Virus genome (UHGV): UHGV-0121456
Length of the DNA: 16,094 nt
Source: a virus
Direction: 5' to 3' (one strand)
Under the pieces are notes generated by a model. The model had not been told where the DNA came from. It saw nothing but the letters and a program-made list of their open reading frames with translations, and made no database searches. A program made the position numbers and the translations under genes. Positions 7,488 through 15,877 of the stretch are shown here, piece after piece. Position 1 is the first letter of the stretch. Each line of letters opens with the position of its first letter.

Positions 7488-7688
7488 CTAATCTTTCGGA
7501 TAGATATCCGGTCTTAAGTCAGATTTCGTAATTGCACCTGACGTGCATTGCTCAAGTTTTTTAGCCAGCACAAAACTGGCTTTTTTATAGCCATTGAAAA
7601 CCAGCCGTAAGTAGCCAGGTGTTGAGCCAACTTTTCCGGCCAACTCGCCCTGCTGTTCTTTGGTTAAAGAGTCCCAATACGCTTTCAT
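7488..7688 (-). CDS. cro: Cro-like helix-turn-helix repressor
   Basis: 66 aa MKAYWDSLTKEQQGELAGKVGSTPGYLRLVFNGYKKASFVLAKKLEQCTSGAITKSDLRPDIYPKD. ATG at 7688..7686 with GGAGG 10 nt upstream. Divergent from cI. The longer track ORF 7488..7991 would run through the operator region. Confidence 0.75.
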   Translation of the reverse strand: MKAYWDSLTKEQQGELAGKVGSTPGYLRLVFNGYKKASFVLAKKLEQCTSGAITKSDLRPDIYPKD

Positions 7689-7778
7689 ACAATATGTACC
7701 TCCGGTGTACATATTACATGATTGAAATGAACCTTCAAGATACTTGTACCTTAACGGTACAAGGGTTTTAATTTCGTT
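7689..7778. promoter_or_regulatory. OR-like immunity region: two palindromic operators (7692-7714 ATATGTAC-N7-GTACATAT; 7743-7763 CTTGTACC-N5-GGTACAAG) overlapping divergent promoters
   Basis: Perfect 8 bp inverted repeats sharing TGTAC-N7-GTACA. Candidate pR on the minus strand: -35 TTGAAG (7738..7733), 16 nt spacer, -10 TAATAT (7716..7711). Candidate pRM on the plus strand: -10 TTTAAT (7767-7772) about 7 nt before the cI ATG, which would make cI mRNA leaderless. Confidence 0.55.
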
Positions 7779-8453
7779 ATGAAAACAATCCATGACATCC
7801 GGCGGTCTAACGCCAGAAAACTGAGAGATGGTGTTGGCGGGAATTCTTCCTTTGCCACTATGATTGATCGCGAGCCAACCCAGACCAGCAGGTTTATGGG
7901 AGATGGTGCTACTAAAAATATCGGTGACAGCATGGCACGACACATCGAAAAATGTTTCGACCTGCCTGTCGGATGGCTCGATCAAGAACACCAGACAACG
8001 AACATCACAAAAAAACCTGATGTTTCAATCACTAATAAACAAATCACATTAGTCCCTGTCATATCATGGGTACAGGCCGGAGCATGGAAAGAAGTTGGAT
8101 ATTCTGAGGTTGATTTGAGCACAGCAGAAACGTATCCCTGCCCTGTACCCTGTGGGGAAATGACTTATATCTTGCGGGTGATAGGTGATTCAATGATTGA
8201 TGAGTACCGCCCGGGAGACATGATTTTTGTCGATCCTGAAGTACCTGCCTGCCACGGTGACGACGTTATTGCATTGATGCACGATACAGGCGAAACCACC
8301 TTCAAAAGGTTGATAGAAGATGGGACACAGCGTTATCTCAAAGCGTTAAACCCAAACTGGCCTGAGCCTTACATTAAGATCAACGGTAATTGCTCTATAA
8401 TTGGTACAGTGATTTTCTCAGGAAAACCAAGAAGATACAAAATCAAAGCCTAA
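7779..8453 (+). CDS. cI: CI-type prophage repressor (helix-turn-helix plus S24 LexA-like autopeptidase domain)
   Basis: 224 aa. C-terminal GDSMIDEYRPGDMIFVD ... TFKRL holds the Ser/Lys dyad. Divergent from cro across the operator region. No strong Shine-Dalgarno. Confidence 0.85.
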   Translation: MKTIHDIRRSNARKLRDGVGGNSSFATMIDREPTQTSRFMGDGATKNIGDSMARHIEKCFDLPVGWLDQEHQTTNITKKPDVSITNKQITLVPVISWVQAGAWKEVGYSEVDLSTAETYPCPVPCGEMTYILRVIGDSMIDEYRPGDMIFVDPEVPACHGDDVIALMHDTGETTFKRLIEDGTQRYLKALNPNWPEPYIKINGNCSIIGTVIFSGKPRRYKIKA

Positions 8454-8465
8454 TCAATGTTTATG

Positions 8466-8488
8466 AACCTGCTTCGGCAGGTTTTTTT
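8466..8488 (+). terminator. Intrinsic terminator downstream of cI
   Basis: 7 bp stem aacctgc/gcaggtt (8466-8472/8477-8483) with loop ttcg, followed by a run of seven T ending at 8488. It lies 13 bp after the cI stop. Confidence 0.75.
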
Positions 8489-8492
8489 ATAC

Positions 8493-8536
8493 TTGACAAT
8501 GTACCTTTGAGATACATAATGTACCCAAGCGAAACA
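8493..8536 (+). promoter_or_regulatory. pL-like promoter with overlapping OL-like operator half-sites
   Basis: TTGACA (8493-8498), 16 nt spacer, CATAAT (8515-8520). TGTAC at 8500-8504 with ATACA at 8512-8516 (N7 spacing as in the OR operators), and a second TGTAC at 8520-8524. Confidence 0.5.
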
Positions 8537-8667
8537 ACGAACAGGCAGGACGCCCACGAAGTAGCCGCCTGAGGCATATGAAGTCCTAGATGATTCGTTA
8601 GCAACAAAAAAGCGCCCTAGTGCACGCTTCGCTCTTTAACAATCTGGATATCCACAACAGTAGCAAT

Positions 8668-9159
8668 CTACAGATTGCCGTTAAGTTTTCTGGACAACTC
8701 CTCAATGGATGGAGGCGATACATAATCTGGATTTTTATTCATCAGAAACTTATTTTCACAGTGGAGGCACCTGCTTTTATGAAAAAGCTCATCTTCGCTA
8801 ACCGGGAATGGTTGAAGTATCGATACTATCTTTTGTCCAAAACATTTTGGGCAAAGATGCATGGTTATGCTGCCACCGTTCACGATTACCTCCTTCGAGT
8901 ATACAAAAGTACCCGACTCAAGTTGGTTAAGGATATAGCCTTCCGTCTGAGCCTCAAAGTTTTCGAATTCTGCAATTTTAGCTTTGAGAGAAGCATTTAT
9001 TTCTTGATAAGAGCCCACCAGTTCAACGAGAGACACGCATTCGCGCTGAATAGACGCAAGCTTTGAGTTCAGCTCACCAATAGCCGCATTTACTTCAGCT
9101 TGAGTTTTTGCCTCGTTCATTAGTTTTGCAATCTGGGCTGTTTCACGAATAGCCGTCAT
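8668..9159 (-). CDS. Hypothetical coiled-coil protein with a C-terminal Cys4 zinc-ribbon-like motif (CPKC ... CLHC); candidate accessory gene next to cI
   Basis: About 163 aa from ATG at 9159..9157 (MTAIRETAQIAKLMNEAKTQAEVNAAIGELNSKLASIQ...); GTG at 9183 is an alternative start. The upstream part of the 259 aa track ORF looks like junk. AT-rich island on the strand opposite to cI. Confidence 0.55.
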   Translation of the reverse strand: MTAIRETAQIAKLMNEAKTQAEVNAAIGELNSKLASIQRECVSLVELVGSYQEINASLKAKIAEFENFEAQTEGYILNQLESGTFVYSKEVIVNGGSITMHLCPKCFGQKIVSILQPFPVSEDELFHKSRCLHCENKFLMNKNPDYVSPPSIEELSRKLNGNL

Positions 9160-9197
9160 TGCTGCCGTTAATTCAGCGATCACATTGAATACTCTTA

Positions 9198-9243
9198 TTG
9201 TTGTTGGGGATATCCAGATTAACCGAATCCTTGTTGTTGGGGA
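9198..9243. repeat. Two exact 13 bp direct repeats TTGTTGTTGGGGA (9198-9210 and 9231-9243) upstream of the zinc-ribbon gene
   Basis: Exact copies 33 bp apart, 40-85 bp upstream of the start codon at 9159 on the minus strand. Candidate regulator-binding sites. Confidence 0.5.
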
Positions 9244-9469
9244 ATAACCAGGTCCACCTCGCCTGATGTGGCTAAAAGCAGGCACATAACAGCTAAGTAT
9301 TTTCAACCAGAGAGAATCCTTAGCGTTGTGGTGAATGCGGCTCAGCGCACGCGGGTTAAGGTTGAGGCTGACAGTCGACCTTCTGTGGATACCCACCCGC
9401 CTGGTGTGCAACCTTCGCCAGGCACCGGGAGGCACCCGGCACCACAACTTTATGCTGTGTGTAGTCCTG

Positions 9470-12988: not shown

Positions 12989-14215
12989 ATGATTGATAAT
13001 GAAGTTAAAATTTTTGCAAAAGAAAAAGAAAAAATGCTGTGCAACAAACTTTCTTTTTACAGGGAGCATGCTCAATCGAGTGAAGATACAAGAAAAAGAA
13101 ACGAATTTGAACGAGACTATGCGCGTATTCTTTATTCCTCTTCGTTCCGCCGGTTACAGGGGAAAATGCAGCTCTTTGAAGTCGATCCTCAAAAATTTAA
13201 CCGTAATAGACTGACTCATAGCCTAGAAGTTGCCCAGATAGCCCGAAGCATCGCATCCGAACTAGAACTTGAACATCCTGTTGTAGCAGAACTGGCTGCA
13301 CTTGCTCACGATATTGGCAACCCTCCGTTTGGTCATTCCGGTGAAAAAAAGCTAAACGATATTGCTAATGATTTCGGCGGCTACGAAGGCAATGCACAGG
13401 CACTTAGAATACTCAGAAGTCTCGAGATAAAGCATCCAAATTGCCCCGGTCTCAACCTTACCCACCGTGCCATTCTCTCCGTCGTTAAATATCCTTATAA
13501 AAAGGAAAACGGCAGAAAAAAATATCTTTATAATGATGACTATAAATACTACACAGAATTGGTAAATAGATATGAATTAGATTTGCAGACTGGCGAGAAG
13601 ACCATTGATGCACAGATAATGGATCTGTCAGACGAAATTGCATATGCCGCGCATGACCTTGAAGATGCACTAAGCCGTAGCATGGTCAGTATTGAAGATA
13701 TTTTTTATGAGTTTGGGATATCCAAGTACAAAGACTCAATTGATTTATTAAATACAATCATTGAAAAATCTAAATATACAGCTTCGAGAGCATCAAGACT
13801 CAATTCATCTGAAGAGTTCGCCATAATATTCAGAAAGGAATTGACATCCAATATTGTTAATGCGCTTGTTAATGATATTACTGTTATTCAAAGTGAAAAT
13901 GGATTCAAGCAACTTGGATTTAGCACTACAAAAAATCTGTCTGCAGGCCTTAAAGATATCGTATTTAAAGTCATCATGCGAAAAAGAGATATTAAAAGTT
14001 ATGAGCACAAAGGAAACATTATCATCGAAGATTTATTTAATTTTTATAATTATAGAGATAACATAGAATTCATATCCCCTCAACTGTATAGAACGCTCCC
14101 AAATAAAATAGAGCCTATTTATCAAGAACTTAAAAAACGTGCAATTGTCGACTACATCTCTGGAATGATGGATACATTTGCCATCCGCGAGTGGGAAACG
14201 CATCACAAAAAATAA
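12989..14215 (+). CDS. dGTPase-family HD-domain deoxynucleoside triphosphate triphosphohydrolase (Dgt-like); candidate nucleotide-depletion defence gene
   Basis: 408 aa. Motifs RLTHSLEVAQIARSIA, HDIGNPPFGHSGE, YEGNAQALRIL, DLSDEIAYAAHDLEDAL, VDYISGMMDTFAIREW match E. coli Dgt signatures. ATG at 12989 with GAGAGG Shine-Dalgarno. Sits in a strongly AT-rich island between the xis-like gene and the integrase. Confidence 0.85.
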   Translation: MIDNEVKIFAKEKEKMLCNKLSFYREHAQSSEDTRKRNEFERDYARILYSSSFRRLQGKMQLFEVDPQKFNRNRLTHSLEVAQIARSIASELELEHPVVAELAALAHDIGNPPFGHSGEKKLNDIANDFGGYEGNAQALRILRSLEIKHPNCPGLNLTHRAILSVVKYPYKKENGRKKYLYNDDYKYYTELVNRYELDLQTGEKTIDAQIMDLSDEIAYAAHDLEDALSRSMVSIEDIFYEFGISKYKDSIDLLNTIIEKSKYTASRASRLNSSEEFAIIFRKELTSNIVNALVNDITVIQSENGFKQLGFSTTKNLSAGLKDIVFKVIMRKRDIKSYEHKGNIIIEDLFNFYNYRDNIEFISPQLYRTLPNKIEPIYQELKKRAIVDYISGMMDTFAIREWETHHKK

Positions 14216-15818: not shown

Positions 15819-15877
15819 TTGTACAAATCGCAAAACACCTCTGCTGCTTTGTACATTATGTACAAGCATATGTACAG
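15819..15877. promoter_or_regulatory. Cluster of four TGTACA hexamers upstream of int (15820-15825, 15850-15855, 15859-15864, 15871-15876), including the palindrome TTGTACAttaTGTACAA
   Basis: Same TGTAC core as the OR/OL operators. Lies in the int promoter and att-proximal arm region, which is AT-rich. Confidence 0.35.

Follow-up and report, generated by a model that had tools for sequence, protein, structure and literature searches.

Immunity region of the window

The question raised by this locus is which protein reads the palindromes that separate two divergent regulatory genes, and to which immunity system the switch belongs. The locus lies in a stretch of 16,094 nucleotides from the virus genome UHGV-0121456, referred to here as the window, and comprises the repressor gene cI, the divergent gene cro, the 90-bp spacer between them (an arrangement of the lambda type), and a pL-like promoter downstream of cI. 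According to the analysis, this is a lambdoid prophage immunity switch of the e14/SfV type, in which CI probably acts on sites of the form TGTACC-N5-GGTACA; a probability of approximately 0.88 was given to this reading. Judged by its sequence, the switch is already known and ordinary. The sequence-only reading, an earlier description of the same DNA, had also called it an immunity region, which was supported, and had overlooked its identity as the well-known region of e14 and SfV.

7779..8453, plus strand: cI repressor gene, 224 amino acids, Peptidase_S24 match at 1.5e-26, product identical to YmfK and to SfIV CI
7488..7688, minus strand: cro, open reading frame of a YmfT-type lytic repressor of 66 amino acids, ATG at 7688..7686

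Two perfect 8-bp inverted repeats could be confirmed between cro and cI at 7692-7714 and 7743-7763. The first consisted of the arms ATATGTAC (7692-7699) and GTACATAT (7707-7714) with the core TGTACCTCCGGTGTACA (7695-7711), and the second of the arms CTTGTACC (7743-7750) and GGTACAAG (7756-7763) with a 5-nt centre and the core TGTACCTTAACGGTACA (7745-7761). The exact pattern TGTAC-N7-GTACA matched the two cores and nothing else in 16 kb, compared to an expectation of 0.01, and none of 200 shuffles of the window contained two exact matches. When one mismatch was allowed, three matches were obtained against 0.26 expected, the third at 8500-8516, and all three fall in promoter regions. The unit TGTAC-N7-GTACA given in the sequence-only reading was real as a pattern; however, the conserved half-site is longer. 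A symmetric position weight matrix (PWM), trained on the strong sites of relatives only and then run over the whole window, revealed a half-site of 6 bp (TGTACC) and hence the fuller consensus TGTACC-N5-GGTACA. The five proposed sites took ranks 1 to 5 in the window, followed by a next score of 7.2 bits, while the best score in shuffled windows had a median of 6.1 and a 95th percentile of 11.3 bits. The sites are as follows, with mismatches counted against the fuller consensus unless stated.

7695..7711, unstranded: OR1, strong operator TGTACCTCCGGTGTACA, exact match to TGTAC-N7-GTACA, one mismatch, PWM 23.8 bits
7745..7761, unstranded: OR3, operator TGTACCTTAACGGTACA, best site by consensus with 0 mismatches, PWM 22.5 bits
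8500..8516, unstranded: OL1, strong operator TGTACCTTTGAGATACA, one mismatch to TGTAC-N7-GTACA and one to the fuller consensus, top PWM score of 25.9 bits
8520..8536, unstranded: OL2, weak operator TGTACCCAAGCGAAACA, two mismatches, PWM rank 4 with 11.9 bits, direct-repeat partner of OL1
7728..7744, unstranded: OR2 candidate, weak operator TGAACCTTCAAGATACT, three mismatches, PWM rank 5 with 11.5 bits, comparative support

Every feature of the earlier description was found where it had been placed, including the half-site that recurs at the pL-like promoter (8500-8516 with one mismatch, and 8520-8524). Its inventory contained the strong sites and missed the weak site at 7728-7744 and the full second OL site at 8520-8536, of which 8520-8524 is the left end. 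A further half-site, TGTACCCTGTGGGGAAA at 8144-8160 in the cI coding region, is an isolated TGTACC that scored 7.2 bits, the level of shuffled sequence, and is probably a chance occurrence.

The sites are arranged over three promoters, and a terminator follows cI.

7744..7779, plus strand: pRM, hexamers read in the sequence, -35 TTGTAC (7744-7749), 17-nt spacer, -10 TTTAAT (7767-7772), start A7779
7711..7738, minus strand: predicted pR, read by hand, -35 TTGAAG (7738..7733), 16-nt spacer, -10 TAATAT (7716..7711)
8465..8491, plus strand: intrinsic terminator of cI, eight-pair stem followed by a T run
8493..8520, plus strand: pL-like promoter, TTGACA, 16-nt spacer, CATAAT, 11/12 match to consensus

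OR1 extends from the last -10 base of pR across the predicted start of that promoter and the Shine-Dalgarno of cro (GGAGG, minus strand, 7703..7699), and OR3 lies over the pRM -35 and spacer; both placements agree with the earlier description. OL1 sits within the pL spacer, between TTGACA (8493-8498) and CATAAT (8515-8520). Relative to the cI transcript start, the centres of OR1, the OR2 candidate and OR3 lie at -76, -43 and -26. Dyad-symmetric operators are thus repeated over pR, pRM and pL, as is typical of lambda-type switches.

Operators and the recognition helix in relatives

The CI protein showed the architecture of a lambda-type repressor, with a helix-turn-helix followed by a LexA-like S24 domain carrying an Ala-Gly cleavage site and a Ser/Lys dyad. 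The Peptidase_S24 domain covers residues 93-212, and the cleavage site Ala100-Gly101, Ser138 and Lys176 all occupy conserved alignment columns. No Pfam helix-turn-helix model matched the N-terminal domain. An AlphaFold model built with 22 homologues (mean predicted local distance difference test score of 79) contained four N-terminal helices, of which helices 22-28 and 33-40 form the helix-turn-helix; the recognition helix (helix 3) comprises residues 33-40, PTQTSRFM. Both the whole protein and its C-terminal domain matched the lambda CI structures 3bdn and 2ho0. For Cro, only weak Pfam matches to YdaS_toxin and HTH_3 were obtained, below the curated cut-offs of Pfam, and its E. coli copies are labeled in RefSeq as a YdaS family helix-turn-helix protein. 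The next gene after cro on the minus strand is cII-like, of the CP76 type.

Relatives were collected by a protein search, which returned CI homologues graded from 90% to approximately 40% identity, and by a scan of GTDB genomes, which gave 80 loci. Two OR sites were present at fixed offsets in every locus whose CI was 100% to approximately 43% identical. The offset of OR1 from the cI ATG was -84/-85 in almost every relative and -87/-88 in a few, and that of OR3 was -34/-35 in most and -37/-38 in a few. The genera keeping these offsets include Escherichia, Klebsiella, Pantoea, Rahnella, Erwinia, Serratia, Proteus, Rosenbergiella, Salinicola and Halomonas. The 29 unique OR sequences could be stacked without an indel, at an OR1-OR3 spacing of 50 bp, with conserved half-sites and freely varying centres; such a combination is the signature of a protein-binding site and not of an RNA hairpin. 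Other sites with at most one mismatch were almost absent from the whole 5.6-kb loci.

The presence of the sites followed the recognition helix. A site within 250 bp upstream of cI was found in 31/31 loci with the helix-3 motif (S/T)QxSR and in 0/49 loci with another helix 3, the latter 49 coming from organisms of different base composition. Pseudomonas phage vB_Pae_CF3a encodes a 263-amino-acid repressor that shares only the N-terminal domain (59% over residues 1-71), and the whole OR layout was kept; in a Vibrio phage sharing only the CI N-terminal domain, the pRM-proximal site was kept. No OR sites were found in mEp506/BP-4795-type and Ralstonia phages, which have other helix-3 sequences. 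The pairing of operators and helix among related prophages, which the sequence-only reading had suggested looking for, was therefore recovered, with sites at fixed offsets beside the same helix and none otherwise. A homologous Cro was present in all relatives, and the CI N-terminal domain, OR and Cro are hence inherited as one module.

On the left side, the operator at the pL-like promoter was likewise conserved. All Enterobacterales relatives carried pL with OL1 in its spacer downstream of cI, and the OL1 centre varied freely; the full layout cTTGACAaTGTACC-N5-GGTACATAATGTACC-N5-G(A/G)AACA could be observed in many of them.

Identity with e14, SfV and SfIV

Comparison with known prophages revealed the same repressor and the same operator region in e14 and SfV-type phages. 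In E. coli K-12 e14 (ymfK/cohE - ymfT/croE), CI and the 100 bp upstream of cI were 100% identical to the window, Cro/YmfT differed by one residue, and OL differed by two substitutions, both in OL2. The flanks of e14 are different: after pL the window has a reverse-oriented gene and then yfdP/yfdQ-like genes, and it also carries a replication module and an integrase other than that of e14. SfIV CI was 100% identical to the CI of the window. Over the immunity region, identity was 98-98.7% to PhiR29/PhiR49, SfIV and SfV, and approximately 96% to the cdtI phage, Ayreon and Stx2c-converting phages; similarity to SfV extends to approximately 90 bp past OL2, beyond which the sequences diverge. The 1.08-kb region was found in 1324/5426 complete E. 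coli genomes.

The "putative operator region" of the SfV GenBank record (26377..26445) corresponds to window positions 7694-7762, which is exactly both OR palindromes. The operator stretch is therefore already known, having been annotated since 2002 in SfV, as is the leaderless cI, which was mapped in 2014. YmfK itself is listed only as the "SOS-sensitive repressor" of e14. One literature match on 'defective prophage repressor' concerns RacR of Rac and was set aside as irrelevant to YmfK, CohE and the SfV operators.

Promoters and the leaderless cI transcript

The -10 hexamer of pRM, TTTAAT, ends 6 nt before the cI ATG (7779), in line with the distance of about 7 nt given earlier. A TNTAAT-like hexamer occurred 6-7 nt before the cI ATG in most relatives and 8-9 nt before it in two, with varying intervening bases, and no Shine-Dalgarno at a functional distance before the ATG could be found in the stacked relatives. 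Romero et al. 2014 (PMC4681348), using differential RNA sequencing, reported e14 ymfK among only five leaderless mRNAs of E. coli K-12; in Table S3 of that paper, the transcription start of ymfK is the gene start (A of ATG), with a leader of 0 nt. Since the 100 bp upstream are identical to K-12 e14, the leaderless cI mRNA predicted by the sequence-only reading has been shown experimentally.

The predicted pR start lies near 7703-7706, and both pR hexamers were conserved among the stacked relatives. The K-12 transcription start supplement (PMC4681348) has no entry for ymfT or ymfJ, which agrees weakly with repression in the lysogen. The cI terminator is annotated as such in the SfV and Ayreon records, and a GC-rich hairpin with a T run follows cI in most Enterobacterales relatives. 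Directly after it comes the pL-like promoter, which is annotated as a promoter in phage Ayreon and was conserved in all Enterobacterales relatives.

Proposed regulation and its support

In the proposed mechanism, which is modelled on lambda, a CI dimer would insert helix 3 into the 17-bp dyads TGTACC-N5-GGTACA. In the lysogen, CI at OR1 (and OR2) and at OL1/OL2 would shut pR and pL, and cI would be made from pRM as a leaderless mRNA starting at the A of its ATG. Occupancy of OR3 would limit the synthesis of CI itself, and CI at OR2 (-43) would take the position from which CI activates pRM in lambda. Once activated by SOS, RecA would cause CI to cleave itself at Ala100-Gly101 through the Ser138/Lys176 dyad, freeing pR and pL, and Cro (YmfT) would then bind the same sites, shutting pRM. 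We infer physical binding, the order of occupancy, the activation of pRM, cooperativity and the preferences of Cro.

Several observations weigh against this scheme. The pR promoter was missed by a simple promoter scanner and was read by hand only. No footprint, electrophoretic mobility shift or chromatin immunoprecipitation data for YmfK or SfV CI were found in the searchable literature, the SfV-genome and e14 papers lying outside that search. The spacings between operator centres are 33 and 17 bp in the window compared to 24 and 23 bp in lambda, and the best palindrome is the pRM-proximal site, unlike in lambda; the lambda order of occupancy may therefore not apply. Finally, matches with three mismatches to TGTACC-N5-GGTACA numbered 9 in the window against approximately 4 expected, so that the OR2 candidate is not significant alone, and its right half is degenerate in several lineages (loci L019, L021, L023-L026 and L030), so that its conservation could stem from the pR -35 alone.

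The last two points lead to the alternative that survives best, namely that OR has two operators only and that the conservation of 7728-7744 reflects the pR -35 and neighboring promoter bases. The OR2 candidate overlaps the pR -35 and abuts OR3, its score is close to the 95th percentile of shuffled-window maxima, and the best-conserved part of the element is CAAG, the complement of CTTG in the pR -35. In close relatives, the position reads TGAACC..CAAGGTACT; the conserved ATGAACC, however, falls in the pR spacer, where promoters are usually not conserved. Moreover, the left half is the canonical ATGTACC in Erwinia persicina, Proteus, Salinicola, Halomonas and the Pseudomonas phage, with the site displaced by 1 bp in the Halomonas/Pseudomonas clade, and in Rosenbergiella the palindrome at this register is perfect, AGTTCCTTCAAGGAACT. 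Ranked against the whole locus, the position came within the first five sites in 19/30 unique loci. On this evidence 7728-7744 seems somewhat more probably to be a real third operator, and the two-operator arrangement is a tenable but less favored possibility. A TTGAA-N7-TTCAA dyad spotted by hand at approximately 7723-7739 was better explained by the register-shifted OR2 candidate together with the pR -35.

OL2 is the other weak site. Its first base is the final T of the pL -10, and it extends over the predicted pL start (approximately 8527, plus strand), repeating the geometry of OR1 and the pR -10, where the site also starts at the last -10 base. The direct-repeat copy of OL1 extends over 8518-8536 at a spacing of 20 bp. 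The layout TGTACC-N5-G(A/G)AACA recurred in many relatives, and OL2 was a top-five site in 15/29.

Possible other wiring and the pL leader

Two further readings, which were assessed jointly and together appear unlikely, concern how the switch is wired and what follows pL. According to the first, the lysogenic state could be maintained through tight negative autoregulation, or through CI bridging OR1 and OR3 50 bp apart, rather than through the OR1-OR2 cooperativity and activation of lambda. This was considered because the only perfect site lies on pRM, OR2 abuts OR3 (17 bp) and is 33 bp from OR1, and OL is approximately 800 bp away.

The second reading concerns a pL leader of approximately 70 nt (8527-8600, plus strand), which is found right after OL2 and consists of AACAGGCAGGACGCCCACGAAGTAGCCGCC, a 5-bp stem with a 12-nt loop, and GATGATTCG. 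The element was detected in e14, SfV, SfIV and many relatives. It also occurs without annotation in 51 phage records, among them other immunity types (SfII, ZF40, YeP1, phiNP, SPN3UB, SEN34, mEp237 and mEp460). Three pairs of its stem showed compensatory double changes. A covariance model located a single copy in each locus, with no further copy in the window and no copy in a 7-kb stretch of the HK022 early region; no similarity to HK022 putL was detected by blast or covariance model, and an Rfam scan of the window at gathering threshold gave no hits, the leader included. One possibility is that the element is an undescribed leader RNA acting in cis, perhaps a put-like antiterminator, in lambdoid phages for which the absence of N has been reported.

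Less probable readings: other proteins or hairpins at the palindromes

It could also be argued that Cro (YmfT), or another factor, is the main protein recognizing the sites and that CI binds elsewhere. Cro is conserved in every relative that keeps the sites, and co-occurrence alone therefore cannot separate CI from Cro. However, the sites track the helix-3 motif of CI, the layout is kept in the Pseudomonas phage whose repressor shares only the CI N-terminal domain, and pL, which is far from cro, also carries sites, which fits a lysogenic repressor. In lambda, 434 and P22, moreover, CI and Cro share their operators. Recognition by CI of the TGTACC-N5-GGTACA sites thus remains the preferred reading, and recognition mainly by another protein seems very improbable.

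That the palindromes are RNA or DNA hairpins can be practically dismissed, although a terminator scan did report 7743-7763, followed by the T-rich GGTTTTAATT, as an intrinsic terminator: the arms keep their sequence across relatives with no compensating pair changes, the centre varies freely, the T-rich tail is not conserved, no plus-strand gene ends upstream, the K-12 cI transcript begins downstream, and the same sequence recurs in the pL spacer, where a hairpin would have no obvious role.

Neighboring features

The hairpin at 8609-8630, downstream of the pL leader, looks like an intrinsic terminator serving the reverse-oriented gene at 8668-9447 (minus strand), which faces pL. Directly after this hairpin, CGCTCTTTAACAA (8630-8642, plus strand) is a candidate boxA, matching the rrn/nut boxA consensus.

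Four TGTACA hexamers (15820, 15850, 15859 and 15871) are located just upstream of the integrase start codon (15810, minus strand), and the integrase has an arm-DNA-binding domain. The cluster at 15820-15876 was rejected as a set of CI sites, since it is without the N7 geometry and travels with the integrase. The stretch was 100% identical in Stx1a-converting phages, and in the Stx1a records sampled, cI encodes an unrelated helix 3; conversely, the examined stretches of e14 and PhiR29, which have this immunity region in common with the window, did not contain the cluster. The hexamers probably serve as arm-type sites of the integrase or as int-promoter sites and have nothing to do with CI.

Between the early-left genes and the integrase, positions 12989-14215 (plus strand) encode a 408-amino-acid protein with HD and HD_assoc domains (dGTPase-like phosphohydrolase), which may be a cargo or defense gene.

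Significance and comparison with known systems

The region sets the immunity specificity of very common E. coli and Shigella prophages, namely e14, SfV/SfIV, and the Stx2c and cdt-I converting phages, and the e14/SfV immunity family is carried by roughly one in four complete E. coli genomes. Mutual exclusion among these phages depends on the region, as does the point at which toxin genes, or the division inhibitor YmfM, are released on SOS induction. As biology this is textbook knowledge; what is added here is a five-site operator map with the 6-bp half-site consensus TGTACC-N5-GGTACA, the pairing of helix and operator across Enterobacterales, Halomonadaceae, and Pseudomonas and Vibrio phages, and a set of testable departures from the lambda geometry.

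Shared with lambda are the divergence of cI and cro, operators that are 17-bp dyads, one of which covers pRM, an OL at a pL located after cI, a leaderless cI mRNA and a self-cleaving S24-type CI. The weak candidate site at approximately -43 from pRM would be a further likeness, lambda OR2 being centred at approximately -42. Besides the spacings and the position of the best palindrome, the window differs from lambda in its half-site, which is unrelated in sequence, and in its OL, which has two sites and lies only approximately 800 bp from OR. The N gene has been reported absent from the SfV/SfIV/SfII phage group (PMC3851460), which is another difference from lambda. A homologous N-terminal DNA-binding domain is found in Rep of Salmonella phage SPC32H (PDB 5d50; 38% identity over 73 residues, root-mean-square deviation of 2.0 Å). 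The helix 3 of Rep differs in sequence from that of the CI studied here, and its C-terminal part is a tetramerisation domain targeted by the antirepressor Ant, not an S24 peptidase.

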